A stretch of 64,000 bases of DNA from assembly GCA_002415345.1 (NCBI GenBank), contig DHXV01000003.1, forward strand, positions 24,213 through 88,212, in the 5' to 3' direction. The DNA comes from Patescibacteria group bacterium UBA5147. GTDB lineage: Bacteria; Patescibacteriota; Saccharimonadia; UBA4664. Below are positions 2,358-57,081 of this stretch, one piece after another. Position 1 is the stretch's first letter, and each line of letters begins with the position of its first letter. Both the position numbers and the translations under genes were made by a program. Under the pieces are notes generated by a model. The model saw only the letters and a program-made list of their open reading frames with translations. It was not told the origin of the DNA and did not search any database.

Positions 2358-3614
2358 ATGAAGAAACTGGCACTAAAGATGGCTGCAGGCCCGACAGAAC
2401 AGATTTATATCGGACTCGACGTCGGCAGTACTAAAGTCTGCTGCATTGTCGGTCTCCATGAGGAAGGCTCCGCCAAGCCCAGCGTCATTGGCGTGGGTGT
2501 GGCTCCGACGAGCGGCATGCGCAAAGGCGTGGTCGTGGACGTCGACGAGACAGTGTCTTCGATTACGGCGGCCGTCGATGAGGCTGAACGTATTTCTGGG
2601 ATTGCCATCGACCGCGCAACTATTTCAATCGACGGTGCGCATATCCAAAGCCTTAACTCCAAGGGTGTTATCGCGGTGGGCAGAGCCGACAATGAGATAT
2701 CCATTGATGATCTTATCCGGGTCGAGGAAGCCGCCACGGCAATCCAGCTACCGCCCAACCGTGAAATCCTTCAAGTGTTCCCCCGGAGCTACGCCGTAGA
2801 TTCGCAAAGCAACATCAAAGACCCCGTAGGCATGAACGGTGTGCGACTGGAAGTTGAGAGCCACATCATTACGGGTGCGACGCCGGCCATCAAGAACTTG
2901 GACCGCAGCATTTATCAGGCTGGGATTGAAATCCAAGGCCAGGTGCTCGTGGCCTTGGCAGCCGGCCGGGCGGTGCTGACAAAGCGTCAGAAAGAACTCG
3001 GTGTGGCCGTCATCGATATCGGCGGAGGCACGACGGGTATCGCCGTCTATGAAGAGGGCGACGTACTCTATTCCAGCGTACTTCCGATTGGCGCCGGCCA
3101 TATTACCAACGACCTGGCTATCGGCCTCAAAACCGACATCGACGTCGCCGAAAAGATTAAGCTCAAATATGTTCGGGCCCACACTGCCCGGCTGAATCTG
3201 AATGAAAAAATTCGCATCGAGGAGCTAGATGGTGACGATACCGTCATGACCCGCCGTGATCTCCAGCGGATTGCCGATGCCCGCCTGGAAGAAATTTTCA
3301 GTCTGGTCCGTGGCGAACTTAAGAAAATCGGAAAAGACCATTTGCTGCCAGGCGGCGTGGTCATAACAGGCGGCGGTGCTAAAATGGTCGGTATCGAGGA
3401 ACTCGCCAAGGAACTATTACAGCTGCCAGCCGTCGTCGGCAAGCCCGAGGGTTTTACCGGGATTGTCGACCGGGTAAACGACCCCGCCTTTGCGGCACCG
3501 ATTGGTCTGATGCTCGAAAACATGACGCTTGGCGCCACCCATAGTACCCCAGGCGCCGGAATCGGTCAGACCGTCGATAAGATCAAGGGGATATTTAAGA
3601 ACTTCCTCCCATAG
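2358..3614 (+). CDS. ftsA: cell division protein FtsA
   Basis: 418 aa actin-fold protein. IYIGLDVGSTKVCCIVG N-terminus, DIGGGTTGIAVY, S1C/2B subdomain layout. Confidence 0.9.
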   Translation: MKKLALKMAAGPTEQIYIGLDVGSTKVCCIVGLHEEGSAKPSVIGVGVAPTSGMRKGVVVDVDETVSSITAAVDEAERISGIAIDRATISIDGAHIQSLNSKGVIAVGRADNEISIDDLIRVEEAATAIQLPPNREILQVFPRSYAVDSQSNIKDPVGMNGVRLEVESHIITGATPAIKNLDRSIYQAGIEIQGQVLVALAAGRAVLTKRQKELGVAVIDIGGGTTGIAVYEEGDVLYSSVLPIGAGHITNDLAIGLKTDIDVAEKIKLKYVRAHTARLNLNEKIRIEELDGDDTVMTRRDLQRIADARLEEIFSLVRGELKKIGKDHLLPGGVVITGGGAKMVGIEELAKELLQLPAVVGKPEGFTGIVDRVNDPAFAAPIGLMLENMTLGATHSTPGAGIGQTVDKIKGIFKNFLP

Positions 3615-3641
3615 ATGGCCTATATATCAGTTCAACCGGTT

Positions 3642-3667
3642 CCCGCCTAAACACGGCGGGTTTTTTG
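3642..3667 (+). terminator. rho-independent terminator after ftsA
   Basis: cccgcc-taaacac-ggcggg stem followed by TTTTTTG. Confidence 0.6.
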
Positions 3668-3949
3668 ATTGGAATTTTGGCGGATATTTGGCCGGCAATA
3701 GTTTGACTGTGGAAAACTTTTATGCAGACATTTTGTGTTCAAGCATAAGTATGATGAAATATGGATGCGCAATACATTGCTTGGCATAGGCAAAATAGTT
3801 TGGTTTAGAACAAAATATGTGCACTAAGTTTTTGGCTGAAATATGCCGAATAAAAAAGTTGCATTGTTTTTTATAACAGTCTAGAGTTGACGTTGTACCC
3901 GCTAGTGGTTAACACGGCTTTTGAACTTGGTGGTTAAGGAGTTATATAT

Positions 3950-5401
3950 ATGGCAGAAATAATGCCAGAGGTCGACACGTCGGCCCGGATCAAAGTAATA
4001 GGTGTAGGCGGTGGTGGCGGTTCAGCCATCAACCGAATGATCGATGCAAAAATGCAGGGGGTGGAGTTCGCGGTTATCAATACCGACGCCCAGGCTCTGG
4101 TCCACTCCAAGGCGCCGAGCAAAATTCACATCGGCCGCGAAACGACTCGTGGACTGGGAGCCGGCGCTGATCCGGAGGTTGGTCGTAAAGCCGCCGAAGA
4201 AAGCGAACAGGAAATATACGAAGCTGTAAAAGGTGCCGACATGGTGTTTATCACATTAGGTGAAGGTGGTGGAACCGGTACCGGATCCGCCCCTTATATA
4301 GCGGCCGCAGCACGTGAGGCGGGAGCCCTGGTGGTCGGTATCGTTACCAAACCCTTCACTTTTGAAGGTGAGCGCCGACGCCGCAGCGCTGATGCCGGCA
4401 TCCGGGAGCTTAAAGAAAACGTCGATACGCTGATCACTATTCCCAACGACCGTTTGCTCCAGATGATTGACCGCAAGACCTCGCTCGTGGACGCTTTCGG
4501 TATTGTGGACGAAGTGCTGCAGCAGGGCGTACAAGGAATAAGTAATCTGATTACGATCCACGGGCTGATCAACCTGGACTTCGCCGACGTCAAGGCTATC
4601 ATGAGCAATGCCGGTTCCGCCCTCATGGGTATAGGCCGCGCCAAGGGCGACAACCGGGCGGTGGAAGCTGCCCGTCAGGCTATCGACAGCCCGTTGCTTG
4701 AAACCAGTATCGAAGGTGCGCGCGGCGTACTCTTTAATATCACTGGCGGTCGTAACATGACGATGCATGAAATCGATGAAGCGGCCAAGACGGTCACAGA
4801 TGCCGTGGATCCCGAAGCCAACATTATCTTTGGTGCGGTGCTCGACGATTCCCTGGAGGACGATATCCTTATTACTGTGGTCGCGACCGGCTTCGACAAC
4901 ACGCCCAAGGAAGCTCGAAACGCTTTCCACACCAGCCGCACGGAACACGCCTCCGGAACGCCGGTGGCAGTGTCGACGCCGGAACCGCAGCCTGTTGCAG
5001 AGGCTGAACCGGAGTTTGAGCCGGAGCCTGAGCCGCAACCTATTTTCACCCGAGCGACGGTCGTGCCAACGGAACGCCAGCCGTTCATCAATGAACGTCC
5101 CCAAACCGAGATGGACTCGGACGTGGTACTGCCGGATTTCGAACCGGAGCCACCAGCTCCGCCGCGACGGTTTGCCCCACTGGCATCCATTGAACCCGAT
5201 AACAATGAGACGGCTCACGACAGCAAACAATCACATCACGCAGGCCGCCAATCCCACAGCGCCGTCGATGACGAACCGGTACTTCAGGCATTCGATGATC
5301 CGGAAGACTTTCCGGTTCGTAAGCCCCAGCCTTTAAGCGATTTCGGGATTGAAGAGGACGACTTAGACGTTCCGGCCTTTATCCGTCGCAAAGTCGAGTA
5401 G
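3950..5401 (+). CDS. ftsZ: cell division GTPase FtsZ
   Basis: [14 protein letters not shown] tubulin signature, GGGTGTG T4 loop, long acidic PEPEPE-rich linker and conserved C-terminal peptide [23 protein letters not shown] precedes the ATG. Confidence 0.95.
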
Positions 5402-12996: not shown

Positions 12997-14112
12997 GTGC
13001 TCCAAAGCCGCTTCTGGAAAAATTTTGATTGGATCCTATTCGGTTTCATAGTCCTCCTGACGGCTATGGGCCTGATTGTGATATATTCCACGTCATTTAA
13101 AGCCACATCGCTGGACAGTTCGAGCGAGGTGGTGCATCAGGGGATTTTTGCAATCATCGGCCTGGTGGCGTTGGTAACCGTGTCGCGCATAGATTATCGG
13201 ATGTGGGGGAAAATGGTCAATTGGATCTATGGCGGTTCAATTCTGATGTTGGTCGTGGTCGAGGTTTTTGCCCGTCCCGTACTGGGAGCCAAGCGGTGGA
13301 TTGATCTTGGCTTCTTCCAGTTCCAACCCAGTGAGCTGATGAAGCTGGCTCTTATCATCGTGCTGGCCAAACTCTACGCCGACAATTACGACCAGTTGGA
13401 GCGGCCAAAGTTCCTTCTGATTTCGTTGGCGTACATGGCTGTTCCGGTTATTTTGACCTTCAAGGAGCCGGACCTCGGTTCGACGTTGGTGCTCATAGTG
13501 ATTTGGCTGGGTATGACACTGGTGTCGCGGGTCCGCAAAGTCTATTTGGGCGCGCTGCTGGCGGCCGCCGTGGCGATGGCACCTATTGGATATGCACTCC
13601 TGAAGCCGTTTCAAAAAGCCCGACTGGCCACCTTCATGGACCCTGCCGCCGACCCGCTCCATACGGGATATAACGTGGTACAGTCAACCATTACGGTGGG
13701 GAGTGGTCAGATGTTTGGAAGGGGACTGGCGGCCGGCTCACAAACGCAGCTCAACTTCTTGCCGAGCCTGGCCCAGCATACTGACTTTATTTTTGCGGTG
13801 TTGAGCGAAAAGATGGGATTCGTAGGCTCGGGCTTGGTGGTTGCCCTGTTCGGGGGGGTTATGATTCGAGGGTTGATTATAGCGAACCGTTCGCAGGATC
13901 GCTTCGGTATGTTCGTTGCCTCCGGCGTGGTAGCGATGCTCTTATTCCACTTCTTTATCAACGTGGGCATGAATATTGGCATTGCGCCGGTAACCGGAAT
14001 CCCGCTACCGTTTGTCAGTTACGGCGGAACCTCGTTGATTGTAGCCATGATGAGTATCGGATTGCTTGAAAGTATCGCCATTCGTCGGAAGAAGCTGCAA
14101 TTCGGCAGCTAA
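12997..14112 (+). CDS. SEDS family peptidoglycan glycosyltransferase (FtsW/RodA)
   Basis: 371 aa, about 10 TM segments, GSGQMFGRG and conserved PE/PLPF.SYGGTS motifs. GTG start. Confidence 0.85.
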   Translation: MLQSRFWKNFDWILFGFIVLLTAMGLIVIYSTSFKATSLDSSSEVVHQGIFAIIGLVALVTVSRIDYRMWGKMVNWIYGGSILMLVVVEVFARPVLGAKRWIDLGFFQFQPSELMKLALIIVLAKLYADNYDQLERPKFLLISLAYMAVPVILTFKEPDLGSTLVLIVIWLGMTLVSRVRKVYLGALLAAAVAMAPIGYALLKPFQKARLATFMDPAADPLHTGYNVVQSTITVGSGQMFGRGLAAGSQTQLNFLPSLAQHTDFIFAVLSEKMGFVGSGLVVALFGGVMIRGLIIANRSQDRFGMFVASGVVAMLLFHFFINVGMNIGIAPVTGIPLPFVSYGGTSLIVAMMSIGLLESIAIRRKKLQFGS

Positions 14113-14141
14113 GCATAAGCATATTATGGTAGGATGGCTGT

Positions 14142-15722
14142 ATGAAATGCCCAAATTGCAACACTGAACTGACTCTAGGCGGTAAAATAGCCTTATGCCT
14201 AAATTGCGGCACCACCCAGCCGTTACCCACCGCACAACCTAAAGGTCCTGAAACGACCGCAGCCACCGCGCCAGCTGACGCGGCTAACATGGCTCAGCCC
14301 GCCACGACGCCGGTCGTAATGCCGACTATCCCCCTGGTGCCGACCGCACCCACGCCGGCTAGCCTATCCGCTCCCGAACCTGTCAACCAGCCGGCAGTAG
14401 TCGGCCTGGTGCCGCCCGTCGCAGATTCGGTCCAGTCGTCACAACCGGGTTTGACGCCGTCGCTGGCGGCCAAACAGCCCCGTCGTAAGTTGACGCTGGC
14501 GTTGATAGTCGGCGTGCCGTTACTGCTTGTGGGCGGGAGCGGTGCCTACGCCTATAACGCTTATCAAATCGCCCCCAGCCATGCTCTGGTTGGGTACCTC
14601 AATAAACTCGTAAATTCCAAAACGGGCAAGTATAGTGGCACGATTACCTATCGCGGTGATTCTGGCGACGGTTCCTCTCTGGGTATCTCCAAAGTCGATC
14701 TCACTGTTACCGGAGCCTATGATATTGTCGATCAGAAGAACCCCAAGGCCGACCTGACGCTGGGCGGTTCGGCCGGGACCTACGGCGTCAAGGCGCAACT
14801 GCGTACCCTTGATAAGGCGGCCTACTTCAAACTGGACAGCCTTGATCTGGTCCAAAACTTTGGCCTGACGCTGTCCAAAGATTGGTACAAAATCGCTATG
14901 GACGACAACGCCGAGGCAAGTAAGTGCACGAGTCAGTCGAGCAAGAACTCCAAGAACTTCCTCGGATCGCAGGTATTAACCGATCTGCCGCTCAAAAACG
15001 TTAAGGCTGTCTCATTATGGGAAAACATCGCCGGACACCGCACTACTCATTATTCTGGTGAGTTGAATGTTGCCAAATTACAGTCGTACATCGATAACGC
15101 CAATAAGGACTTGTCGGCCGATTGTAAAATTACGCTGTCGGCCAAAGATTTGGAACATACTACGATAAGTTATGATTTGTGGTCGGGTACGGACTTTGAC
15201 CGTATGCGCATCAAGGCCAATGATACGGAATCCAAAAGCCAGATCGAGAGCACCATCGATACCTCCGGTTACAATAAATCGGTCAAGATTGTTGCCCCGG
15301 CCAATGCTAAAGAGCTTAAGGATGTGCTCTCCGCCCTCTACGGCAGCGACGGCACGGACTCGGTCGGCTCATTCAGTAGTAGCTCCACTAGCTCATCCGG
15401 AGCAAGCGCGCAGGTGAAGGCCCGCGACATCCAACGTCAAACCGATTTGCGGTCTGTCCAAAAGGGGCTTGAAGAGTATTTTGTCGACAACAGTACCTAT
15501 CCATTGACGTTGATTGCTCTTACTCAGGGGCAGGTGCCGATATTTAAAACGGTACCGGTTGATCCAGTAGGCAAGGCACCCTATGGGTACATCTATAAGC
15601 CTGGTCCGGCCGGATGCAAGACTACGTGTGACAGCTACACCCTCAGCGCACAACTAGAGGATACAAAAGCTACCGGCTCAAATATCGTCAACGGAGTATA
15701 CTCTCTCGTAAACCCCAATTAG
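14142..15722 (+). CDS. membrane protein: N-terminal Zn-ribbon, Pro/Ala-rich linker, TM, large ectodomain ending in a pseudopilin (GspG)-like domain
   Basis: MKCPNCNTELTLGGKIALCLNCG zinc ribbon. TM segment LTLALIVGVPLLLVGG. C-terminus ARDIQRQTDLRSVQKGLEEYFVDNSTYPLTLIAL...PVDPVGKAPYGYIYKP matches the type IV pilin/pseudopilin globular-domain pattern but has no prepilin N-terminal helix. Confidence 0.6.
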   Translation: MKCPNCNTELTLGGKIALCLNCGTTQPLPTAQPKGPETTAATAPADAANMAQPATTPVVMPTIPLVPTAPTPASLSAPEPVNQPAVVGLVPPVADSVQSSQPGLTPSLAAKQPRRKLTLALIVGVPLLLVGGSGAYAYNAYQIAPSHALVGYLNKLVNSKTGKYSGTITYRGDSGDGSSLGISKVDLTVTGAYDIVDQKNPKADLTLGGSAGTYGVKAQLRTLDKAAYFKLDSLDLVQNFGLTLSKDWYKIAMDDNAEASKCTSQSSKNSKNFLGSQVLTDLPLKNVKAVSLWENIAGHRTTHYSGELNVAKLQSYIDNANKDLSADCKITLSAKDLEHTTISYDLWSGTDFDRMRIKANDTESKSQIESTIDTSGYNKSVKIVAPANAKELKDVLSALYGSDGTDSVGSFSSSSTSSSGASAQVKARDIQRQTDLRSVQKGLEEYFVDNSTYPLTLIALTQGQVPIFKTVPVDPVGKAPYGYIYKPGPAGCKTTCDSYTLSAQLEDTKATGSNIVNGVYSLVNPN

Positions 15723-16179: not shown

Positions 16180-17286
16180 CTATTGAATGACCCAATAATC
16201 AAAGGCGTAGCCACGGCCCGAGTATATGCCTGAGGCTGCCCCAATAGTAAAGTCGGTAGCCGTGCGTTGGACGTAATAGGGCAGCGCCCCGGCAAATGAC
16301 CCGACGGGAGTTATCAGAACCCGGGGCACCCGCCCGTAAGCGGTATGGAAAGTGACTTTAATGAGTAATCCGCCTCCCGCCGTAGCGGCATTGGTGACTG
16401 AACCGGTATTGACGGAAACGGTACCCGCAGAATCATTGCCATCGATGTTGGCCGAGGCGCCACCGCCAGCCTCACTCCCTAAGCTTATGCCGGGGCGTTG
16501 GCCGGTAATAATCAGGTGGCCGCTCAGGTTGAGGTTGCCGGTAACGGCCAGAGTCGAAGTATTGATGACGCCGGCGGACAAACTCCCGCCGAACGTCCCG
16601 TTGCCGCTGGCCGAGAGGTCGCCCTTGGCCGTGGCCCCGCCGTTTAAGAGCGCCGGGCTTTGCAGGATGAGCGGCCCGGTGACGTTCAGGGCGGCACGAA
16701 CGTTAGTGACGCCAAGGGTTGATGTCTTATCGACGATCAGGTCGCCCAGGTTGGCGGATCCAGGAGCGGAAATGCCGCCAATAACCTTGAGGTCGTTATT
16801 TATCGCAACGCGGTTTGAGAATAACGTGGAGGAAGAAATGGTCAGAACCTGAGACGAGCCGCCGCCCGCCCCGCCAAAAAACGTTCCCAGTTTTTCCAGG
16901 TCTTTTTGGTCGAGGGTCGTCACTTTGGGCGCGGTCACTACGGTCTTTTTATTCGTTTGAGTCAGGTATAAATAACCCCCCAGAACGAGGCCGGCGGCAA
17001 TTATTGCCACCACGAAGGTTACGAGCGTCGTGATAATGTCGGCACGTTGGTAAACCGAAGTCAGGGAAGCGCGTCCCTTGGCGACGACTCCAGCCGAGAT
17101 TCCAGCGCCGGGATCCAGCACGGTCGGGACCGTACCGTCTGAGAGGGGGTCGGCCTGAAGCTTGCCGCCTGCGAGAGGTTGCGCCTCAGCTTCATCCCCG
17201 GCAGCGGGGGTCACCAAATTGTCCGGCTCGGCAACAGGAGTAGGGTCGGTTTTGGTTGTATCTTCGTCGCTCATCATCGTGCTCAC
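16180..17286 (-). CDS. membrane-anchored beta-helical repeat protein (paralog 1 of 2)
   Basis: 368 aa. Acidic/Pro-rich N-terminus, one TM, then Gly/Thr/Asn-rich repeats (LxVxGxxNLxG...). Conserved C-terminus GRGYAFDYWVIQ shared with 33001-33918. Confidence 0.55.
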   Translation of the reverse strand: MSTMMSDEDTTKTDPTPVAEPDNLVTPAAGDEAEAQPLAGGKLQADPLSDGTVPTVLDPGAGISAGVVAKGRASLTSVYQRADIITTLVTFVVAIIAAGLVLGGYLYLTQTNKKTVVTAPKVTTLDQKDLEKLGTFFGGAGGGSSQVLTISSSTLFSNRVAINNDLKVIGGISAPGSANLGDLIVDKTSTLGVTNVRAALNVTGPLILQSPALLNGGATAKGDLSASGNGTFGGSLSAGVINTSTLAVTGNLNLSGHLIITGQRPGISLGSEAGGGASANIDGNDSAGTVSVNTGSVTNAATAGGGLLIKVTFHTAYGRVPRVLITPVGSFAGALPYYVQRTATDFTIGAASGIYSGRGYAFDYWVIQ

Positions 17287-17375: not shown

Positions 17376-18317
17376 ATGGTTGTCAAACTAAGTCATCATC
17401 GGCATTCGGGGCGGTTAAGACCCCATCACGAGACGTCTTATGCGTTGCTCGTATTTTTGCTAATGGTTACGACCATCGTTGTGGCTGCCGTAACTACGCC
17501 TGCCAAGGCGGCACTCACAGGATCAGGTTCCTACAGCGTATTGGCTGTAGTGCCCGGACCGCGTCCGACGCAACCAGCTATCATTACTTCACCGGTCAAC
17601 GGGCAGATCTTCCAGACGAACCCCATTACCGTTGTGGGAACGTGCCCTAAGGGAACGCTGATTAAAATATTCAAGAACGGGGTTCTCGCTGGGAGCATCA
17701 TCTGTGACAGTACCGGTCATTTCAACCTGCCCATCGACCTGCTGATTGGTTCCAACGCTCTCACGGCCGTTGCTTTTAACACTAACGATCAGGCTGGTCC
17801 GGATTCGCCGGCCGTCAATGTGACGCTCAACGTGCCGGCCGGGGGATTCGGTTTCTCCAGCGAGCTGATATTGCAATCCACCAGTTATTACCGCGGGGTA
17901 GTCCCGGGTCAACAAGTGGTGTGGCCCATTGATATCGTGGGCGGGCTAGCTCCGTATGCCGTCAACTTTGAATGGGGCGACGGTACCAGCAGCCTGGTTA
18001 CGCGGCTTGGTCCCGGACCGTTCACCCTTGAGCACGTATACAATAAGGTCGGGGGATATCTGGGAGCATTCCCGTTGATTATCCGGGCCACAGACGCCGC
18101 CGGGCATACCGCTTACTTGCAACTGACAACCATTGTCAACGACCCGACGGCCGCAACGGCCTCCACGACCAAAGGTGGCGGCACGGGTTTTAACGTCAGC
18201 AGCGTTATGGTTATTTGGCCGCTTCTCATAGTTTTGTTCCTGATTGTACTGGCCTTCTGGCTCGGTGAGCGTCGTGAAGAAGGCATTATGCAGCGACAAA
18301 TGGCAGCGTTGGCGTAA
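17376..18317 (+). CDS. bitopic membrane protein with Ig-like and PKD-like domains (paralog 1 of 2)
   Basis: His-rich N-terminus HHRHSGRLRPHHETSYA, TM, PKD signature FEWGDGTSS...HVY, C-terminal TM ending WLGERREEG. Paralog of 39227-40180. Confidence 0.6.
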   Translation: MVVKLSHHRHSGRLRPHHETSYALLVFLLMVTTIVVAAVTTPAKAALTGSGSYSVLAVVPGPRPTQPAIITSPVNGQIFQTNPITVVGTCPKGTLIKIFKNGVLAGSIICDSTGHFNLPIDLLIGSNALTAVAFNTNDQAGPDSPAVNVTLNVPAGGFGFSSELILQSTSYYRGVVPGQQVVWPIDIVGGLAPYAVNFEWGDGTSSLVTRLGPGPFTLEHVYNKVGGYLGAFPLIIRATDAAGHTAYLQLTTIVNDPTAATASTTKGGGTGFNVSSVMVIWPLLIVLFLIVLAFWLGERREEGIMQRQMAALA

Positions 18318-19953: not shown

Positions 19954-20094
19954 TGATGTGGTGTTGTGGAAAAGAAACGTTGTAAAAAGTGTTGACAAGC
20001 CTAAGCGTATTGCTGTAAATTAAGCGTAAGTAGTTTTAAAAACAAAACGTCGGTGGAAAAACTAAACACGCCTCCGACAGAAAATAAACCAAAA

Positions 20095-21213
20095 ATGAAA
20101 TCCAGAAAATTAAAACTCATCTTTGCTACCACCACGGCTATAGTTTTAGAAATTATGGCACCTACCTTTATTCAGGTGGCTAACGCCGCGAGTGCGCCTC
20201 AGTTCACGGAGACATTTGTGCGGGTTGATCGTCACAAGGCTCTTACACAAACTGGTCTCATGGTCTGTGCCAAGCCGTCGGCGGCCAGTACCGCCGGAAT
20301 TGAAGCGGCAGTGAATATAACGTTACCGACATTGTTGGGCGCGGGCACGGACTTTGTGGTGAACGCGACAGCCGCCAACTGGACGGTAGACGTTTTGAAT
20401 CTACCAACTGAGCCAGGCAGCACCGGCCCAGCCGTGGCTGCAACCGCATGGCCAGGAATCGGAACCGCCACGAATGTCAGCGGACATACCGTAACGTTCC
20501 CATCGGGAGACCTGACAGCTGCGACTCTTTACTGCTTCCACATCTCCGGGACTAACACCTTTACGACCAGTACTGCCGCCGCAGGATCAGCCATCGTTAA
20601 TGCGACTTTGTACACTGAGGACAGCGTTCCGGCTACAATCAACCAAACAAACTGGTCAACCTCGGTAATCACTGACGACCAAATCGTAATCTCCGCCATC
20701 GTACCTCCTAGCTTCTCACTGACTCTCGATGGTAATACCGATGCCTTCCAGTTCAATCTGGACCCGGCCGCCACAATCAGCACCGGCGGCCGTACCGTCA
20801 GCGTCGTCACCAACGCAGTAGGTGGATGGATAGCCTGGGTAAAGGACACCCAGCAGGGCCTATACTCCGCGACGGCTAACTACACCATCCCGACCAAAGG
20901 GACGATCAACGCCACTCCCGAAGCGTTAACGAACGGCACCGAAGGCTACGGATTAGTCACATCCATTACCACGGCCAACGTGGGCGGCTGTACGACGGTA
21001 GTAGATCCGGAGTACAACGGCTCAGCCACCGACGTGGGTGCCTTCAGCGCATCCTTCCAGCCGATCGCCGCCTGTACCAGGACAGGGGCTCCTCCTGGAA
21101 CCTCCGACGGTGACGTGCTCACCCTGATCGAGCGGGCGACCATCAGAGGTGGTACTCCGGCCGGATCAGACTACTCGGACATTCTTACCATCGTCGGAGC
21201 CGGTAACTTCTAA
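20095..21213 (+). CDS. secreted surface-subunit family protein, subfamily B
   Basis: MKSRKLKLIFATTTAIVLEIMAPTFIQVANA signal peptide. The tracked GTG 20053 is 42 nt upstream. ANWTV, YCF.ISGT, AIVPPSFSLTL.GNTD motifs shared with 21337-22419. C-terminus DYSDILTIVGAGNF. Confidence 0.6.
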   Translation: MKSRKLKLIFATTTAIVLEIMAPTFIQVANAASAPQFTETFVRVDRHKALTQTGLMVCAKPSAASTAGIEAAVNITLPTLLGAGTDFVVNATAANWTVDVLNLPTEPGSTGPAVAATAWPGIGTATNVSGHTVTFPSGDLTAATLYCFHISGTNTFTTSTAAAGSAIVNATLYTEDSVPATINQTNWSTSVITDDQIVISAIVPPSFSLTLDGNTDAFQFNLDPAATISTGGRTVSVVTNAVGGWIAWVKDTQQGLYSATANYTIPTKGTINATPEALTNGTEGYGLVTSITTANVGGCTTVVDPEYNGSATDVGAFSASFQPIAACTRTGAPPGTSDGDVLTLIERATIRGGTPAGSDYSDILTIVGAGNF

Positions 21214-21231
21214 ACCGCCTTAATCGAGCAG

Positions 21232-21259
21232 GGAAGCCATGAAAATGGCTTCCTTTTGC
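21232..21259 (+). terminator. rho-independent terminator
   Basis: ggaagccat-gaaa-atggcttcc followed by TTTTGC. Confidence 0.55.
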
Positions 21260-21288
21260 TTGTAGCAGCATTTTGTTCTTGCAACCTG

Positions 21289-21302
21289 CTTATGCTTTAG
21301 CT
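21289..21302 (+). promoter_or_regulatory. CTTATGCT-type extended -10 promoter element (operon 21337-24446)
   Basis: ctgCTTATGCTttagct, 41 nt upstream of the start codon. Confidence 0.35.
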
Positions 21303-21336
21303 AAACTACGTTCAGTAGTGTAGTGAAAGAGGTTAT

Positions 21337-22419
21337 ATGCGGAGCTTACAGCCCCGAGCGATTTATCGAATTGTTATTATTGTGGCAATCGTACTGAGTA
21401 CGTTGTCAGTATTTACTCCTGCTTCAGCTGGGGCTGTCGGCTTTCAACAGGCGTATATCCGCCTGGACCGTCTGAAAGCCAACACGGCAACCGGTGGAAC
21501 CGTTTGTGCCACGCCGGCATCAGCTGCCACGGAAGGCAAAGTAGTTCTAACGTTTCCCTCGACCTATACTCTCAATACCACCGCGGCCAACTGGACCGTC
21601 ACAACAACCAATCTCCCGACGGGCGCCACTGCCTGGGTTGGTATTACGACTGCGACCGCCATTGATAACGTACTAAAAACCGCCACCTTTACATCGGGTG
21701 ATCTCACCGTAGCTACAGAGTACTGCTTTAATTTTTCCGGAACCACCACACTGACCACGGCTGCTAGCGCGGCCACGAACCAACAGGCGAACATTCAGAC
21801 CCAGACGAGCGGTGCAGTCGTGATTGATTTCACCAATATCGCTTTTGCCAACATTAACGATGACCAAATTCTGGTAACCGCCGTGGTCCCGCCATCGTTC
21901 AGCTTCACACTGTCCGGTAACACTGATCCGTTTGTGACCAACCTTGATGCAACCCAGGTGATTTCCACGAGTGGCAAGACAGTTACCGTCACCACCAACG
22001 CCAAAGGCGGCTGGATAGCCTGGGCTAAGGACAGCCAACAGGGCCTGCATTCAGCAACCGCCAACTACACTATCAACACTACCAGCGTGGTATCTGGTTC
22101 ACCGCCCCTAAAACAAGTTTCTGCCGGCGTCGAAGGGTACCTCCTTGATACCGATTTAACTACCGACGCAGCCAGCGGGTGTACACTTGCAATTGACACG
22201 TCTTACGGCGGTACGACTACTGGTGTACCAGTAACTTTGGCAACTGGCGGTGCCTTTAGCGCCAACTTCCAATCGATAGCTGCTTGTACGGGTGCGTCGC
22301 CAGCCTTCTCTGCCGGGGACGTGATCACCCTGATTGAGCGGGCTGCAATTACCAATGCCACGCCAGCTGCCAGCGACTATACTGATATTGTCACTGTTGT
22401 GGGCGCCGGTAACTTTTAG
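21337..22419 (+). CDS. secreted surface-subunit family protein, subfamily B
   Basis: Signal peptide. Paralog of 20095-21213 (ANWTVTTTNLP, YCFNFSGT, AVVPPSFSFTLSGNTD). C-terminus DYTDIVTVVGAGNF. Confidence 0.6.
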   Translation: MRSLQPRAIYRIVIIVAIVLSTLSVFTPASAGAVGFQQAYIRLDRLKANTATGGTVCATPASAATEGKVVLTFPSTYTLNTTAANWTVTTTNLPTGATAWVGITTATAIDNVLKTATFTSGDLTVATEYCFNFSGTTTLTTAASAATNQQANIQTQTSGAVVIDFTNIAFANINDDQILVTAVVPPSFSFTLSGNTDPFVTNLDATQVISTSGKTVTVTTNAKGGWIAWAKDSQQGLHSATANYTINTTSVVSGSPPLKQVSAGVEGYLLDTDLTTDAASGCTLAIDTSYGGTTTGVPVTLATGGAFSANFQSIAACTGASPAFSAGDVITLIERAAITNATPAASDYTDIVTVVGAGNF

Positions 22420-22443
22420 ATCATTTCTGTACAAAGGTCCTTC

Positions 22444-23505
22444 ATGAAGAAACGTTTCCTTCTTTCCCTGTCATTTATCACGCTTATTGGGGCACAAGCT
22501 CTTATCCCCCTAGTTGCTGTGGCGGTCGATTCTAAACCATTAAATCTGATAACCTCGCCGCTACCGATTAACTTGGCGACCGATCCGGGCAAAACCGTGA
22601 GCACGGATCTGAGAATTAAACAGGCCGGCGGCGACACCCAGCGCCTCAAGGTCAGCCTCATGAAATTTGCCGCCTATGGCAGCGAAGGCAAGCCCAGGCT
22701 GGTTGACCGCGGTCCGGGAGACAATTATTTTGACTGGGTAAAATTTGATAAGACCCAGTTCGACGCCCCTTCCAACGTTTGGCAAACAGTGCATATGACG
22801 ATCAACGTTCCTAAGGATGCCGCTTTTGGTTACTACTACGCCGTGGTTTTTAGCCGTGAGGGGGATGACACGCGCCAGGCCGGTAACACCAACGCCATAA
22901 ACGGTGGCACGGCCGTTTTAGTGCTGTTAGATGCCAAGGTGCCCAACGCTGTCCGCTCGCTGCAGTTAAACGCTTTTACGTCCGAACATCGGCTCTACGA
23001 GTTTTTGCCGGCCAAGTTCAAGGTCAGCTTCCACAATAGCGGGAATGTCCATCTGGTCCCGACGGGCAATATTTTCATTAGCAAAGGCAAGACTCAGGTT
23101 GCCACACTATCGATAAATGCTGAACAGGGCAATGTTCTCCCTCAATCCAACCGGGTATACGATAGTAGCTGGGGTGACGGTTACCCTCATAGTGAACCGG
23201 TGGTTGAGGGCGGAAAAACCAAAATCGACGCCAAAAACCAGGAGGTGGACCATTTGGTGTGGAGTAACGGCGAAGGCAAGGACATCACACCCCATCTACG
23301 CATGGGCAAGTATACGGCCCATTTGTTTGCCGTTTACGACGACGGCCAGCGTGACGTACCGGTAGAGAGCGAAATTAGCTTTTGGGTGATCCCGTGGCGC
23401 TTCCTCTTGGCTCTGCTGGGTGTGGCACTACTCATCGGATTCGGCGTCTACGGCTTAATCCGCGGAACCTGGAGCGGGGCGCGTAAGATAGGGCGTAAGA
23501 AATAG
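22444..23505 (+). CDS. two-Ig-domain cell-surface protein with C-terminal TM anchor (CscA/DUF916-DUF3324-like architecture), paralog 1 of 3
   Basis: Signal peptide, beta-rich ectodomain with NSGNVHLVP and GNVLP motifs. C-terminus SFWVIPW + TM + GRKK basic tail. Confidence 0.6.
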   Translation: MKKRFLLSLSFITLIGAQALIPLVAVAVDSKPLNLITSPLPINLATDPGKTVSTDLRIKQAGGDTQRLKVSLMKFAAYGSEGKPRLVDRGPGDNYFDWVKFDKTQFDAPSNVWQTVHMTINVPKDAAFGYYYAVVFSREGDDTRQAGNTNAINGGTAVLVLLDAKVPNAVRSLQLNAFTSEHRLYEFLPAKFKVSFHNSGNVHLVPTGNIFISKGKTQVATLSINAEQGNVLPQSNRVYDSSWGDGYPHSEPVVEGGKTKIDAKNQEVDHLVWSNGEGKDITPHLRMGKYTAHLFAVYDDGQRDVPVESEISFWVIPWRFLLALLGVALLIGFGVYGLIRGTWSGARKIGRKK

Positions 23506-23507
23506 CG

Positions 23508-24446
23508 GTGGCGCTCAGACGCCTGCTAATGGGACTGCTTCTAGCCGGGGGCTTGAGCATTCTGATGGCCCTGCCGGTGCGGGCAGCGAGCCAGGGGTTC
23601 ATTATTTCGCCCGCATTTCAAAGCGTCATCCTGACGGCGGGCCAGACTCACACGCAGTATGCGCTGCAGCTGACCAATTCGACACCCACGGATCAGAATT
23701 TCCGCTTGTCCGCGGTGGATTTCGGCTCGCTTGATGAAAGCGGTGGCGTAGCCTTCCTAGGAATCCCAACCAGCGAACTTGAACATCGGTATGGCTTGGC
23801 AGCCTGGATGAAACTGGGCACCAACACGGTATTTGTAGCGGCGGCGAAGAGCGTCCAGGTAATCGTGACGATTGATAACCGTGCGTCGCTGGCTCCAGGG
23901 GGCCATTATGGGGCGATTTTAGCGACGGCCGTCACCGATACCGGTAAGGATACTGCGGGTGATCCAAGGGTTAACTTGCGCCAGGTATTATCATCCCTGG
24001 TGCTGTTAACCAAAGACGGGGGGATTAACGCTGAGCTCAAACTGACCAGCCAAAGCGTTAACCGGTCCGGGCTGCGGATGCCTAGTGCTACTTCCCAACG
24101 GTTCCAAAATACCGGCAATGTGCATTTGGTACCGCGGGGCACGGTGGTAATAAAAGATCCGGCCGGACGTGTCGTGTCACGCGGAGCGCTCAATGACGGA
24201 TCCGGCACTATCTTGCCCGAGAGTTTTCGCCGCTATGACACACCTCTAATGAGCATCGGCGCCCCCTGGCTACCCGGCCGGTATCAGGCCGTCACGACCT
24301 ATCGCTACGATGGTACCGAACAAACCAAGACGTTGGCGACTAGTTTCTGGTACGTAGGACAAGGAATTGTTTGGATTGCCGCGGTGGCGGTAGTTGGTTG
24401 TGTCGGTTGGCTGGGCTGGTTTTTTTGGCGGCGCAGGCGGAGCTAA
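23508..24446 (+). CDS. two-Ig-domain cell-surface protein with C-terminal TM anchor, paralog 2 of 3
   Basis: NTGNVHLVPRG, GTILPESFRRYD. C-terminus SFWYVGQG + TM + RRRRS. Confidence 0.6.
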   Translation: MALRRLLMGLLLAGGLSILMALPVRAASQGFIISPAFQSVILTAGQTHTQYALQLTNSTPTDQNFRLSAVDFGSLDESGGVAFLGIPTSELEHRYGLAAWMKLGTNTVFVAAAKSVQVIVTIDNRASLAPGGHYGAILATAVTDTGKDTAGDPRVNLRQVLSSLVLLTKDGGINAELKLTSQSVNRSGLRMPSATSQRFQNTGNVHLVPRGTVVIKDPAGRVVSRGALNDGSGTILPESFRRYDTPLMSIGAPWLPGRYQAVTTYRYDGTEQTKTLATSFWYVGQGIVWIAAVAVVGCVGWLGWFFWRRRRS

Positions 24447-24539: not shown

Positions 24540-27500
24540 GTGTATCTGCCTAATCGTCTCTCTACGAGTCGAATGTTCAAGGTAGCGGCGGTAGCCATAC
24601 GTCGGCAAAAGACAAAGGCCCTTGCGGTAACTGGTCTTTTAGGCGTTGTGCTGATTACAGCGATAAGTTCGATGCCCGCTCCGGTCATTGCCGCCGTGGG
24701 CATCAACAAAACCATCAACTTTCAGGGGAAAGTCGTCAATACCAACGGCACCAACGTGGCCAACGGCAGCTATACTTTTGTCTTCAAACTCTACACTGTT
24801 GCCAGCGCGGGAAGTGCCAACTGGACCGAATCAAAGTCGCTGACCGTAACCGACGGAGTGTTCCAGACCAACCTCGGTGACGTAACCAGCCTCCCGGGAT
24901 CGGTCGACTTCAACAGCGATAATATCTACATGGGGATTACTTTTTCGACCGATGCTGAAATGAGCCCGCGCATCCAGTTCACGGCCGCGGCTTACGCCTT
25001 TAACTCTGACCGTCTGGGAGGGATTGCGGCGGCCGGTTTCGGTCAACTTAACCCGGGGAGTGCGCAGTCCGGTTCGCTCAATGTTACCGGTAGCATTCAG
25101 GCCGCTACTTCGCTGCAGGCGCCACTGGTGGATACCGCCACGGGTGTGGCCCTGAATATCGGCACGACCACTCAGACCAGCCTGACCCTTGGGCGTAGCG
25201 GTGCGGCCTTCGTTTTGCAGGGTTCATCAACCAGCACGGTTAAAGCCACCTCGGGCGCATTTACCACCACTTTGGGATTCATTACGCCAACGGCCAATAA
25301 TACTATCAGTCTGCCGAATGAGGGGGGTACGCTGTGCATACAGAATTCCGTTAGCTGCGGGTTCCTGACGGGCGCGACTAGCGATTACGTCCAGAACACG
25401 ACAACCCAGCAGGCGAGCAGTAATTTCAATATTTCCGGCATCGGTGTTGCTGCCGTCGCAATCCAAGCACCACTTCATGCTACCGCCGATTCGGCAGTCG
25501 CCGGGACGGCAAATTTGACTCTCCGTACGGGAAATGTGACAGCCGGAAATGCCCTGTCGTCTGGGAACGTTACGATTAAGTCGGGCGACGGAACGGGTAC
25601 CAGCACCAACACCAGCACCGGAAATGTCTCGGTCGATGCCGGAGTCAAGAGCGGCAGCGGATTCGCCGGCAATTTGAATATCGGGACGATCAACGCTCCG
25701 AACGTCACGATTGGCCACAACGGCGCAACTCCTGCAACAGTTTCAATCCAGGGTGCGGCGGCCACTTCGGCTCTCATTATGTCCAATGCCGCCGGTACCT
25801 TTAGCTCGACGATTGCCTTTGCCAACCCTACCGCAACAACCACTACGACTATTAGCAATGCGGGCGGCACGGTTTGTACGACCGTATCGAGCACGTGTTC
25901 TGGGACGTACCTGGTTTCGGGCAGTTATTTGGCAAAAAATGCCGCGGATACTTCCAACGCGGGCGTTGCCGGCTATTTGCTGGGTCTCACCAACACCTCT
26001 GGAAACGTGTTGCAGCTAACTGGTGCCGGCACCGGTTCGGCACTCAGCGTGAGCCAATCCGGCAATCCGGTGGCAGGCTCGGCGGTAATTTTTGCCAACA
26101 ATACCAACGGAACACCGTCAGGCAACCTGATTGATCTGCAAGCTGTGAGCGTCAGCAAGTTCAGCGTGACAAGCGCTGGTGCCGTCACTGCTGCCAGCAC
26201 CATCAATAGCCAGACGATTTCCGCCACCGCTCAGTTTACGGGTACTGTAACATCCGCTGGTGCAGTGACGGTTCAGGCTGGCGGGATTGGAGTGACCGGA
26301 AACTCATCAATCACAGGTACGCTGGGTGTGAGTTCTAACGTCACGGTTTCGGCCGGTAACCTCACGCTGTCAAACGGCACGCTTAGCGTTACCAGTGCGG
26401 CCCAGAACTCCATCAGTGGCGGCCTGCAATTAACCGGCGGCTTGGATAATCAGAGCGGCGGCATAACTAACACCGGTGCCGTGTCCGGCGCAACCACTGT
26501 GACGGCCAACGGCACCATTACCGGCGGCGGGGCGTTCAAATCGGCCGCTGCGGCCTCAACTTCCGCGGTCACCCTGATGTCCGGCAATGCCAGCGCCGGT
26601 ACATCGGGCGACGTTACCGTGGATTCTGGAACCGCCACTTCAACAACCGGCATCGTGAACATCGGGACCTCAAATGCATCGGCTATTAATGTCGGGAACT
26701 CCACGGCTCCCGTTACGGTGCAGGGGAGTGCAACTTCGAAATTGGTGTTTGGCAACAGCACGATTAGTGCTGTCAGCTCGGCTACGGCAGCCACCTATCA
26801 ATTTGCGGCCCCCTCTAGCGCTACAACCTATAACATTTGTACCAGTGACGCCAACTCCTGTACGGCGACCTTCCTCCGCAAGAACATCGTGGGTGAACAA
26901 TCATCGGCAGGCTTGGCCGCAGGGCAATACTTGTATCAGTTCGCCAACACCGGTGCCGCCACAGCAGACGTGTTGCAGCTAAATTCTGGCACCGGCACCG
27001 GTTCAGCCCTTAAGGTAACCGCTGCCGCCAACGCTGCCGCCGGAAACGCCCTGATTTTTGCGGAACTTACTAACGCCTCTATCGGCGGCAATCTGCTGGA
27101 CCTATGGAGCGGTGCCAGCGGCAGTGAGACTAGTAAGTTTGCCGTGGCCGCCAGCGGTGCCGTCACCAGTGGCACCATTAACGGCCAGACATTGGGCGCC
27201 ACTTCACAGCTCGCAATCGTCAACACCTCTGGCCTTCTGACGGCAAACTCCCTCACGGTTACAAACACTGCCAACTTAAACAGCGCTGTAAATGTTACCG
27301 GCCTACTAAGCGCCAATGGCGGGGCCAGCGTTACCGGGGGAATTGCCAATAATGCCGGCGGGATTACTGGGGCCGGGGCAGTGAGCGGAGTAACTGGCAT
27401 TACCTTCAGTTCGGCCGGGGCAATAGATTCCAGCGCCGCCACGGCTATAAACATTGGTACAACGACAGCATCCACCGTCAACATCGGGCGGACGGCGGGA

Positions 27501-28550
27501 TCGTTGTCATTGCAGGGCGCGGCCGCGAGCACTACGCTGGCCGGATCTAACGGTGGCTTTACGACAACGGTTGGTTTCGCCAACCCGATGGCGGCGGTAA
27601 TTTATCAATTCGCCACGGCTACCGCCGGTACTTACCAGCTGTGCTCGACCTACGCGTCAACCTGTGGGAGCACCTACGCGCCCTTTTACGGTGCCGGGTA
27701 TGTTCAGCTGGCACCAGGCTCGGCCCAAACTGATACTTCAACCAATACTGCGTTATTCATTAATAAAACTGCCGGAACTTCGTTGGTTAACTTGCAGGCT
27801 TCGGGGTCAACGGTATTCAATGTCCAGACTAACGGCACAGCCTATCTGGGAGGAGACTCAGCCTCGGCTGCCTTTATGGTGGACACGACCAGTTTCCGCG
27901 TCAAAGTAGGAACAGGCACGCCGAGCCAGTCCGGGGGCACCAACAACGCCACCACTGGGCTATATGTCAGTGGCACCACGGAGCTCGCAGGGTTGGTATT
28001 TATTGGAACCGCGGCCAACAACGCTTCCTTTAGTAATGCCACCAAGGAAGTAACATTCAACGGAACCGCGCGTCACGCCAGGACCTTACGCCTGATTGCC
28101 GAATACGCTGGCGCAGTGCTTGATACCGGTGGAGCCTCCACCGTCAATGGAATTATGACTGCCAGTTTTGATGCTGCGGCATCGCCGACCATGAGCTATT
28201 ACAAATGGACTACCAGCCAGGCAACCAACCAGAGCTATGACGTCGTAGTTACCGTACCGGTGCCTGAAGATTGGGGAGCCTGGAACGGCAACGCGACAAT
28301 CGTGAACTATGGTAGCGGAACCGGAGTATCGGAATCCGTCACCGTTTATGACACTGCCAATGCTATCGATACCAATATCAATACTTCAGCTCTGACGGTG
28401 GCAGGAGCGTGGTCGACCAGAACCCTCCCGGCATATGCAGGAACGTATACGGCTGGTGGGGTAATGAAGCTGCGCATCCATATGGTATCCGGTGCCGGCG
28501 GTGACGTAAGGTTGGGCACAATCTCCTTGCCTTATTTGAGCAAGTGGTAG
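24540..28550 (+). CDS. giant secreted Gly/Thr/Ala/Asn-rich repeat fibre protein (1336 aa)
   Basis: Signal peptide, likely from MFKVAAVAIRR at 24573. Internal tandem modules of about 330 aa (e.g. LQLTGAGTGSALSVSQSGNPVAGSAVIFANNTNG vs LQLNSGTGTGSALKVTAAANAAAGNALIFAELTNA). Four repeats carry a Cys pair (GT[LV]C...S.C). Distinct C-terminal globular domain ending LPYLSKW. Confidence 0.7.
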   Translation: MYLPNRLSTSRMFKVAAVAIRRQKTKALAVTGLLGVVLITAISSMPAPVIAAVGINKTINFQGKVVNTNGTNVANGSYTFVFKLYTVASAGSANWTESKSLTVTDGVFQTNLGDVTSLPGSVDFNSDNIYMGITFSTDAEMSPRIQFTAAAYAFNSDRLGGIAAAGFGQLNPGSAQSGSLNVTGSIQAATSLQAPLVDTATGVALNIGTTTQTSLTLGRSGAAFVLQGSSTSTVKATSGAFTTTLGFITPTANNTISLPNEGGTLCIQNSVSCGFLTGATSDYVQNTTTQQASSNFNISGIGVAAVAIQAPLHATADSAVAGTANLTLRTGNVTAGNALSSGNVTIKSGDGTGTSTNTSTGNVSVDAGVKSGSGFAGNLNIGTINAPNVTIGHNGATPATVSIQGAAATSALIMSNAAGTFSSTIAFANPTATTTTTISNAGGTVCTTVSSTCSGTYLVSGSYLAKNAADTSNAGVAGYLLGLTNTSGNVLQLTGAGTGSALSVSQSGNPVAGSAVIFANNTNGTPSGNLIDLQAVSVSKFSVTSAGAVTAASTINSQTISATAQFTGTVTSAGAVTVQAGGIGVTGNSSITGTLGVSSNVTVSAGNLTLSNGTLSVTSAAQNSISGGLQLTGGLDNQSGGITNTGAVSGATTVTANGTITGGGAFKSAAAASTSAVTLMSGNASAGTSGDVTVDSGTATSTTGIVNIGTSNASAINVGNSTAPVTVQGSATSKLVFGNSTISAVSSATAATYQFAAPSSATTYNICTSDANSCTATFLRKNIVGEQSSAGLAAGQYLYQFANTGAATADVLQLNSGTGTGSALKVTAAANAAAGNALIFAELTNASIGGNLLDLWSGASGSETSKFAVAASGAVTSGTINGQTLGATSQLAIVNTSGLLTANSLTVTNTANLNSAVNVTGLLSANGGASVTGGIANNAGGITGAGAVSGVTGITFSSAGAIDSSAATAINIGTTTASTVNIGRTAGSLSLQGAAASTTLAGSNGGFTTTVGFANPMAAVIYQFATATAGTYQLCSTYASTCGSTYAPFYGAGYVQLAPGSAQTDTSTNTALFINKTAGTSLVNLQASGSTVFNVQTNGTAYLGGDSASAAFMVDTTSFRVKVGTGTPSQSGGTNNATTGLYVSGTTELAGLVFIGTAANNASFSNATKEVTFNGTARHARTLRLIAEYAGAVLDTGGASTVNGIMTASFDAAASPTMSYYKWTTSQATNQSYDVVVTVPVPEDWGAWNGNATIVNYGSGTGVSESVTVYDTANAIDTNINTSALTVAGAWSTRTLPAYAGTYTAGGVMKLRIHMVSGAGGDVRLGTISLPYLSKW

Positions 28551-28555
28551 GGTTG

Positions 28556-34800: not shown

Positions 34801-34823
34801 TTAATGTCACTAACATAAGCGGG

Positions 34824-34852
34824 TTGACCTGGTAATTATTCTTATGCTAATA
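34824..34852 (+). promoter_or_regulatory. sigma70-like promoter with CTTATGCT extended -10 (subfamily C operon)
   Basis: -35 TTGACC, 17-nt spacer, cttaTGcTAATAT. Confidence 0.45.
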
Positions 34853-34893
34853 TTCATGCATTAGTATGGTCATAAAAGGGAATTGAATTAACC

Positions 34894-36012: not shown

Positions 36013-36058
36013 GACTCTCTCTCGTTATTCTAGTAACCATTAACGACTGAAGCCAATC

Positions 36059-38109: not shown

Positions 38110-38178
38110 AGTCTTCGGGACATTTTAACATTGTGCAATCCTCTAAAAAAACCAAGACGCAGGTTGTATACTAACGCC

Positions 38179-38191
38179 CTTATGCTATTAT
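38179..38191 (+). promoter_or_regulatory. CTTATGCT-type extended -10 element immediately upstream of 38199
   Basis: ccCTTATGCTATTATtac. ATG follows 8 nt after the hexamer. Confidence 0.4.
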
Positions 38192-38198
38192 TACTTTA

Positions 38199-39203: not shown

Positions 39204-39207
39204 AGCA

Positions 39208-39220
39208 CTTATGCTACACT
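39208..39220 (+). promoter_or_regulatory. CTTATGCT-type extended -10 element immediately upstream of 39227
   Basis: caCTTATGCTACACTag. ATG follows 6 nt after the hexamer. Confidence 0.4.
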
Positions 39221-39226
39221 AGAAAC

Positions 39227-42626: not shown

Positions 42627-42645
42627 AATCAGCTTCGGCGGGTGC

Positions 42646-57069: not shown

Positions 57070-57081
57070 GGATGGTCTGAT

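Follow-up and report, generated by a model that had tools for sequence, protein, structure and literature searches.

A type IV pilin head without leader or stem at the C-terminus of a predicted membrane protein from Saccharimonadia

Introduction

Type IV pilins are defined by a class III signal peptide, and their hydrophobic alpha1-N segment serves in membrane insertion, processing and assembly and forms the main subunit interface of type IV filaments (PMC4471445). Type IV pili are reported to drive the association of Saccharibacteria with their hosts (PMC11623550, PMC9894109). Pilin parts can also be recombined with unrelated domains, diversifying surface functions, as in the modular pilins PilB and PilC of Streptococcus sanguinis (PMC8179133) and in the sugar-binding proteins of the Sulfolobus bindosome, which carry class III signal peptides (PMC3047682). 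Here we analyze a gene from Patescibacteria group bacterium UBA5147 (GTDB lineage Bacteria; Patescibacteriota; Saccharimonadia; UBA4664) in which a pilin head appears in a different setting, as the last domain of a predicted membrane protein. The gene lies at positions 14142 to 15722 of a stretch of 64,000 nucleotides, referred to below as the window, which covers positions 24,213 to 88,212 of the forward strand of contig DHXV01000003.1 (NCBI GenBank assembly GCA_002415345.1).

A second described family is relevant to this protein. SCO4651 is a lipoprotein of S. coelicolor whose gene is among those of the sigma-E regulon, the cell-envelope stress response (PMC6767563), and a domain related to it precedes the pilin head in the protein described here.

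Results

A pilin head at the C-terminus

The open reading frame (ORF) at 14142..15722 on the + strand is a complete coding sequence with an ATG start, encoding 526 amino acids plus the stop, with the same coordinates, strand and length as in a sequence-only reading of the window, which had proposed that the protein ends in a pseudopilin-like domain without a prepilin leader. Searched on its own, the protein scored below the 21-bit cutoff of the Pfam family T2SSG (PF08334), with 14.6 bits for the whole protein and 17.4 bits (E=0.0048) for the C-terminal module, and it matched GspG structures in the PDB at E=0.04 to 0.3. T2SSG matches at E<=0.01 were present in 12 of 93 relatives, the best at 2.3e-8. 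A head profile built from the C-terminal modules of seven homologues matched GspG 2kep at 3.3e-6 and EpsG 3gn9 at 1.7e-5, along with 3fu1 and 4lw9 (range to 4e-5), and its weaker PDB matches were likewise pilins. Against 5.8 billion proteins the same profile gave 747 matches with E-values down to 2.8e-33. The best 120 of the 747 are all 116-189 amino acids long, 116 of these 120 carry the prepilin N-methylation domain (PF07963), and the best prepilin matches are 38-49% identical to the head across 80-99% of the module. A profile search had been named beforehand as the test that could refute the pilin domain, and the similarity it returned, to solved pseudopilin structures as well as to prepilins, is highly significant.

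The fold was confirmed independently. An AlphaFold2 model of the isolated head, for which true prepilins provided the alignment depth, reached a predicted local distance difference test score (pLDDT) of 92 and a predicted template modelling score (pTM) of 0.84, with a 28-residue helix (module positions 6-33) packed on a small antiparallel sheet. Foldseek of the head against the PDB returned EpsG (3gn9/4lw9, probability 1.00/0.99, template modelling score (TM-score) 0.55-0.62) and PilA1 of C. difficile (6t8s, TM-score ~0.5), all further matches having a probability of <=0.04. Judged by profile similarity and predicted fold, the last 106 residues are a genuine homologue of type IV pilin heads. 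The head occupies residues 421-526 (15402..15719, + strand) and is predicted to comprise an alpha1-C helix (423-450), an alpha-beta loop and an antiparallel sheet of 3-4 strands, with a Cys492/Cys496 pair; the peptide from which the pilin pattern had originally been recognized corresponds to residues 427-488.

The segment by which a pilin is processed and assembled is absent. In an alignment with eight true prepilins the match starts precisely at alpha1-C, just past alpha1-N, which bears out the missing prepilin leader and places the boundary right after alpha1-N. At this boundary the prepilins read ...KKQGGFTLLELLIVIVIIGILALIIVPGLASGPKRARDAQRKSDL... and the window protein ...SSSSTSSSG-[gap]-ASAQVKARDIQRQTDL..., the query showing a gap where the true prepilins have the 24-residue GFTLLELLIVIVIIGILALIIVPG block. 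The window protein lacks the leader peptide, the Gly-1/Glu+5 processing motif and the hydrophobic alpha1-N of 21 residues, and in their place has a Ser-rich flexible tether (residues 401-420; 15342..15401, + strand; pLDDT <50 for 402-417). The 30 residues ahead of the module are likewise polar or of low complexity in each of the other 37 relatives that carry it. No class III signal motif (G[FM..][TS]..E) was found in the window protein, in any of the 153 family members described below, or at the start of any ORF of >=70 amino acids in the window.

As alpha1-N is the anchor, the prepilin-peptidase substrate and the main subunit interface of a pilin, the head is predicted to be neither processable by PilD nor polymerizable. 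The protein has the globular head and the head homology of a pilin but neither the class III signal nor the continuous alpha1-N, and therefore should not be filed as a pilin. The similarity of its head could nonetheless make automated annotation call such proteins "pilin" or "GspG-like".

Architecture of the protein and its middle domain

The gene product (14142..15722, + strand) is a bitopic membrane protein with a predicted N-in/C-out topology, based on the ORF, its relatives and a structure model. Residues 1-27 (14142..14222, + strand) are predicted to form a cytoplasmic four-Cys zinc ribbon, in which C3, C6, C19 and C22 make up a CxxC-x12-CxxC pair and two short hairpins are modelled at pLDDT 82-88; Pfam zinc-ribbon matches (Prok-RING_1, Zn_Ribbon_1) are below cutoff. 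Residues 28-112 (14223..14477, + strand) are a Pro/Ala/Thr-rich linker with 18 P, 16 A and 10 T among 85 residues, predicted to be cytoplasmic and, from its composition and pLDDT <50, disordered. The single transmembrane (TM) helix spans residues 117-140 (14490..14561, + strand), with KQPRRK directly before it as expected from the positive-inside rule, and a stalk helix runs on to ~158, the modelled helix covering 115-158. The ribbon, the linker and the single TM helix were all found as the sequence-only reading had described them and are kept in relatives. Its layout was nonetheless incomplete, as it overlooked a folded domain of ~240 residues between the TM helix and the pilin head.

This beta-rich domain (residues 160-400; 14619..15341, + strand) was modelled with ~11 beta-strands and a few short helices at a pLDDT mostly >90, and it contains a Cys pair, C262 and C328, conserved in >=90% of relatives. 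With C262 and C328 conserved and the TM helix flanked as the positive-inside rule predicts, the protein is predicted to be N-in/C-out with both folded domains outside. In the model of the whole protein the pLDDT is 81 overall and >90 in both folded extracytoplasmic domains, with disorder at 34-110 and 402-417. This architecture, with a pilin head that is displayed and does not polymerize, can be proposed with high confidence.

The query matched the NCBIfam model NF053532 (SCO4651 family lipoprotein) with 70.2 bits against a cutoff of 65 (E=2.3e-19), residues 185-389 aligning to profile positions 70-272 of 277, and 67 of 93 relatives also match this model. By these profile matches the middle domain is assigned to the uncharacterized SCO4651-lipoprotein family. 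Weak matches to Pfam LppX_LprAFG (PF07161) were found in 20 of the 93 relatives at E<=0.01 (best 1.4e-5), and one relative (P0164) reached 22.8 bits, just under the 24-bit cutoff, suggesting at most a distant and weak kinship with the LolA-like lipid-carrier lipoproteins LppX and LprG. The query has no lipobox (class II signal peptide); the anchor is the TM helix 117-140, after 116 cytoplasmic residues.

The protein family and the recurrence of the head

A full-library HMMER search with residues 116-420 as the query recovered 189 cluster representatives (106 to 1117 amino acids long) at E<=1e-3, and for 54 of these the E-value was <=1e-30. The named relatives are from Saccharimonadales/Saccharimonadia metagenome-assembled genomes. 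Nearly all relatives have exactly one hydrophobic helix directly before the middle domain, while ~4 short members have a lipobox-like motif instead. The C-terminal pilin head is present in 38 of 153 family members at E<1e-8 (50 of 153 at E<1), and the N-terminal CxxC..CxxC ribbon, at the same position, in 34 of 153. Given these frequencies, the TM helix and the SCO4651-like domain form the family's core, to which ribbon and pilin head are added as accessory modules.

When the window protein is compared with its close relatives P0002 and P0003, the zinc ribbon is 96% identical, the Pro/Ala/Thr-rich linker 60-73%, the middle domain 85-92% and the head 74-75%, so that by sequence identity the head appears to be the fastest-evolving folded part.

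Another family member, P0004 (661 amino acids; L002 10001-11986), carries two tandem pilin-like modules, of which the one at 435-530 is degenerate (E=3e-3) and the one at 545-661 well conserved.

The head is also found on a second anchor. A metagenomic ORF of 281 amino acids (P0275; L010 452-1297) starts with an N-terminal region followed by a DUF4190 membrane domain of two helices (PF13828, 7.6e-17), and after a linker rich in Ser and Thr it ends in a pilin head that has no leader (T2SSG 4e-4); a homologue 52% identical to it (P0276) is encoded on a contig of 1.1 Mb. As the head occurs on the DUF4190 anchor too, the stemless pilin head seems to be a reusable module that is not tied to one family.

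Probable exchange of heads with true pilin genes

The heads on these proteins do not appear to have a single origin. Over 117 amino acids, the well-conserved head of P0004 (545-661) is 78.6% identical to the head of a true prepilin (P0008), and it is 59% identical to the nearest fused head, while its middle domain is 60% identical to that of its nearest relative, P0148. Based on these identities, at least one exchange after the split of P0004 and P0148 is hard to avoid. For seven of the 38 fused heads, the closest sequence is a true pilin and not another fused head. In a neighbor-joining tree of cluster representatives (38 fused and 120 true heads, ~108 columns), 11 switches between pilin and fusion were counted, with 10-15 in column resamples; a single origin corresponds to 1 switch and shuffled labels to ~34. 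In this tree the fused heads are not a clade and interleave with true pilin heads, which implies repeated exchange between fused heads and true pilin genes, or at least shows signs of it.

Gene start and immediate surroundings

At least one public gene call cuts the zinc ribbon off the protein. The JGI call P0001 (477 amino acids; L003 1303-2736), identical in sequence, starts at Met50 and omits the ribbon, which is still encoded in-frame on the JGI contig (L003) upstream of the called start. As the ribbon is kept in P0002, P0003, P0005 and ~30 other relatives, and as a Shine-Dalgarno-like AGGAT (14131..14135, + strand; AGGA 7 nt upstream of the ATG) also supports it, 14142 is the better start.

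A gene for FtsW/RodA (PF01098, E=3e-99) ends 29 nt 5' of the ORF and rplU begins 94 nt 3' of it. This order (rodA, the gene, rplU) was seen only on the near-identical JGI contig, and distant homologues lie in unrelated contexts, with no pilus genes beside any family member examined and no prepilin gene within 6-10 kb of any homologue examined. A function read from the operon, including a link to RodA/FtsW, was dropped because synteny is not conserved in distant homologues, and for the same reason a functional tie of the gene to the neighboring surface island described below is not supported.

The window contains the CTTATGCT motif 9 times, where 1.18 copies would be expected, at 3742, 14112, 21289, 24509, 33951, 34841, 38179, 39208 and 52125. 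The reverse copy near the gene does exist as the sequence-only reading had noted, but one base away from the 14113-14120 assigned to it; it lies at 14112..14119 (- strand), where it overlaps the stop codon of rodA/ftsW, and probably has nothing to do with the ORF. The motif was considered as a regulator of the gene and is unsupported in that role, as this copy is reverse-oriented, facing away from the gene, and shares bases with the rodA stop. Upstream of 14142, no promoter scored above chance. Six copies on the + strand precede genes of the surface island by 12-85 nt. The copy at 34841 is preceded by TTGACC at promoter-like spacing, which makes TATGCT a possible -10 element. In two cases a start codon follows the copy after just 12-13 nt, which could yield near-leaderless transcripts.

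Other features of the window

The surface island (17376-40180) contains tandem secreted proteins of ~310-390 amino acids (20053-24446 and 34036-40180), mostly without Pfam matches. Ig/PKD-like proteins with a signal peptide are encoded at 17376-18317 (with a C-terminal TM helix) and 39227-40180. Two overlapping giant ORFs lie within the island, one at 24540-28550 (1336 amino acids, no Pfam match) and one at 28544-32965 (1473 amino acids), the latter with multiple Kelch/beta-propeller repeats (PF24681, 5e-38). The minus-strand genes at 16180-17286, just upstream of the island, and at 33001-33918, inside it, encode TM-anchored proteins that are Gly/Ser/Thr-rich by eye; the gene at 33001-33918 (- strand) has a weak Bactofilin match (E=0.0095), below cutoff. 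A donor-strand-exchange "Pam" pilus operon with PamA/B pilins and membrane-anchored chaperones has been described in bacteria of the Candidate Phyla Radiation (CPR) (bioRxiv 10.64898/2026.03.03.709456). The surface island resembles this operon in layout.

An envelope-biogenesis cluster at 41997-47032 includes tandem signal peptidase I genes at 41997-42626 (- strand) and 42646-43395 (- strand), a gene for an LCP (LytR-CpsA-Psr) protein with LytR_C at 43493-45082 and one for an HtrA-type protease with PDZ at 45878-47032. The FtsW/RodA gene at 12997-14112 was confirmed by Pfam, and from ORF order, size and N-terminal sequence 2358-5401 was read as ftsA/ftsZ and 56017-60429 as mreB/mreC/mreD with a PBP2-like gene. 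Given these readings and the FtsW/RodA gene, the organism appears to keep both its division and its elongation machineries.

Discussion

A probable displayed pilin head

Overall, the protein is probably best explained as a membrane-anchored, non-polymerizing pilin head that is shown on the cell as a surface recognition module. Under this scenario the protein would be inserted by the general Sec/YidC route as an N-in/C-out protein, leaving the zinc ribbon and linker inside the cell and the SCO4651/LprG-like domain at the outer face of the membrane, and the head would be displayed as a monomer at the cell surface on a flexible tether of ~20 residues. As the head is optional (about a quarter to a third of members), fast-evolving and exchanged with real pilins, it is read as an exposed accessory recognition module and not as a catalytic core. 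It may be a recycled binding surface, that is, a short-range copy on the cell body of what the pilus tip or shaft recognizes, which in episymbiotic CPR bacteria would be the host surface. As a short-range adhesin, the head could position the membrane-proximal LprG-like domain at the site of contact. A role of the head in adhesion or host recognition is possible but tentative.

Extending this further, head-only modules might be a mobile recognition cassette in Saccharimonadia, with the head of the current major pilin being recopied onto anchors, both the Zn-ribbon/TM/LprG-like proteins and the DUF4190 proteins, so that pilus and cell body would present one and the same surface for host recognition. 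Once the pilus has retracted and drawn the epibiont to its host, the contact would be locked by the tethered head, and the LprG-like domain would extract from the host envelope lipids that CPR bacteria are not known to make themselves. This extension, in both its parts, is speculative and we consider it unlikely.

Several points weigh against the displayed-head explanation. The function is read from architecture, and the adhesion idea presupposes that the organism has its own type IV pili with a head resembling the module. Among the ORFs scanned in the 64-kb window, no type IV pilus machinery was recognizable (prepilin peptidase, assembly ATPase or platform protein; pilB/C/D), and the window has no pilin gene. 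The nearest true prepilins to the window's own head, from metagenomes, are 42-50% identical to it, so no "twin" pilin was found, and recent copying is unsupported for the window gene, unlike for P0004 and P0008. The tree of heads, with its ~108 columns, is poorly resolved, and the true pilins in it are the best matches to the fused-head profile, a choice that biases towards interleaving. With regard to the middle domain, the query does not match PF07161, making the LprG/LolA-like assignment weak. Sequence and profile searches of the PDB with this domain found no relative, the matches at profile positions 26-130 being Pro-rich low complexity, and Foldseek of the whole 526-residue model against the PDB returned poor generic curved-sheet and barrel matches (hot-dog thioesterases, barrels) with a TM-score of <=0.36 and a root-mean-square deviation of >11 A.

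Alternative explanations

If the middle domain is taken as the working part, the protein would be a handler of envelope lipids or glycolipids with an LprG/LppX-like core, whose head docks onto the organism's own type IV pilus or membrane pilin pool via head-head contacts, thereby localizing lipid handling to the pilus base or regulating pilus dynamics. Consistent with this, the TM helix and middle domain are the conserved part while most members are without the head, the matches are to SCO4651 and LppX_LprAFG, SCO4651 is in the sigma-E regulon (PMC6767563), and the heads track true pilins closely, as expected if they had to fit the resident pilin. However, the main filament interface is alpha1-N (PMC4471445) and head-head contacts are weak, pilus genes were not seen beside any family member examined, and Foldseek of the whole model did not confirm a LolA-like fold, and lipid binding is putative. 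We regard this explanation as improbable, if less so than the other alternatives. Placing the output at the other end of the protein, the outer domains might sense an envelope or host cue and the zinc ribbon act as the cytoplasmic output of a transmembrane sensor, for example by sequestering a regulator as anti-sigma-like proteins do. The predicted cytoplasmic ribbon is present in 34 of 153 members and 96% identical in close relatives, the layout is like that of many bacterial single-pass regulators, and the tie of SCO4651 to the sigma-E regulon (PMC6767563) would fit here as well. The ribbon, however, is not of the HxxxCxxC anti-sigma (ZAS) type and has only sub-threshold matches to generic zinc ribbons, most family members are without it, and the neighborhood has no conserved gene for a sigma factor or regulator. 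The chance that the protein is such a sensor is slim, somewhat below that of the cassette outlined above.

Two further explanations are far less probable than these. A real pilin head and a hydrophobic helix do occur in one polypeptide, as they would in a non-canonical polymerizing pilin or pseudopilin with the TM helix 117-140 replacing alpha1-N, but that helix is separated from alpha1-C by ~280 residues and a whole folded domain, has no Gly-1/Glu+5 motif, and in every relative a polar tether precedes alpha1-C. The defining features of type IV pilins (PMC4471445) are thus lacking, and a polymerizing protein is effectively refuted by the sequence. The fusion could instead be an artefact, whether an assembly chimera, read-through into a pilin pseudogene truncated at its 5' end, or similarity due to chance or low complexity, and the public call that starts at M50 does show that annotation of the gene is unstable. 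However, the same uninterrupted architecture occurs in 38 divergent members, the head folds confidently and is matched at E-values down to 1e-33, and the zinc ribbon is conserved in P0002, P0003, P0005 and ~30 others, with a Shine-Dalgarno sequence at the 14142 start. As JGI, NCBI, ENA and Logan contributed these sequences independently, the fusion cannot have arisen in assembly, and an artefact in any of these forms is very improbable and refuted by the conservation. Given the above, the membrane-anchored, displayed pilin head remains the preferred explanation.

Significance

Domain exaptation is seen here in a clean, somewhat surprising form, a pilin head having been severed at the alpha1-N boundary and put to new use as the last domain of Sec-type membrane proteins with two or more unrelated anchors. 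Should the head retain what the pilus binds specifically, it would provide a handle on what CPR pili recognize on their hosts, on how pilus-mediated capture is turned into stable cell-cell contact and possibly, via the LprG-like core, on lipid acquisition. The literature searched contained no description of a membrane protein fused to a pilin head that lacks its leader, and on this family nothing beyond SCO4651 as a sigma-E regulon gene. The parts, a zinc ribbon, an SCO4651/LppX-like domain and a pilin head, are known; no description was found of their combination or of the reuse of the head only, both of which are new with respect to the literature found.

Comparison with known systems

The closest counterparts of the head are the major pilins of Saccharimonadia and other CPR bacteria (prepilins of ~140-165 amino acids, e.g. 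P0042/P0043 and ORFs on L008 and L011-L020). Their heads are homologous to the module over its full length, at 42-50% identity, and share the signature R-D-x-x-R-x-x-D-L ... Y-P ... D-P ... Y-x-Y and a Cys pair near the C-terminus. In contrast to the window protein, the true pilins carry KKQGGFTLLELLIVIVIIGILALLI..., comprising the leader, Gly-1, Glu+5 and alpha1-N, where the window protein has a Ser-rich tether and its head at the C-terminal end of 526 residues.

Among solved structures, the best matches by both profile and fold are the GspG/EpsG pseudopilins of type II secretion (2kep, 3gn9, 3fu1, 4lw9), which like the head have an alpha1-C helix packed on a small antiparallel sheet. They are only ~23% identical to it, however, and the window protein has neither a class III signal peptide nor a type II secretion context. 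The organism is presumably a monoderm, so a type II secretion system is not expected. A similar principle, alpha1-C and head on a soluble carrier, underlies the alpha1-N-truncated pilins and MBP-pilin chimeras made in the laboratory (4tsm, 4ogm, 4pe2, 7t31), and MBP-pilin chimeras appear among the PDB matches of the head profile. Those are man-made, whereas the architecture in the window is natural, conserved and membrane-anchored.

The middle domain resembles the SCO4651 lipoproteins and mycobacterial LppX, LprA, LprF and LprG in being extracytoplasmic, membrane-tethered and beta-rich. These lipoproteins have a lipobox, while the window protein has a TM helix, a cytoplasmic zinc ribbon and the extra pilin head, and its lipid binding is putative.

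The modular pilins of S. sanguinis and the bindosome proteins of Sulfolobus are the inverse of the protein analyzed here. They keep the class III signal and alpha1-N, and so remain substrates of the type IV pilus machinery, and add a foreign module at the C-terminus. In the window protein it is the N-terminal part that is foreign, and the pilin portion lacks exactly the segment that the machinery recognizes, placing it outside the PilB type of S. sanguinis.

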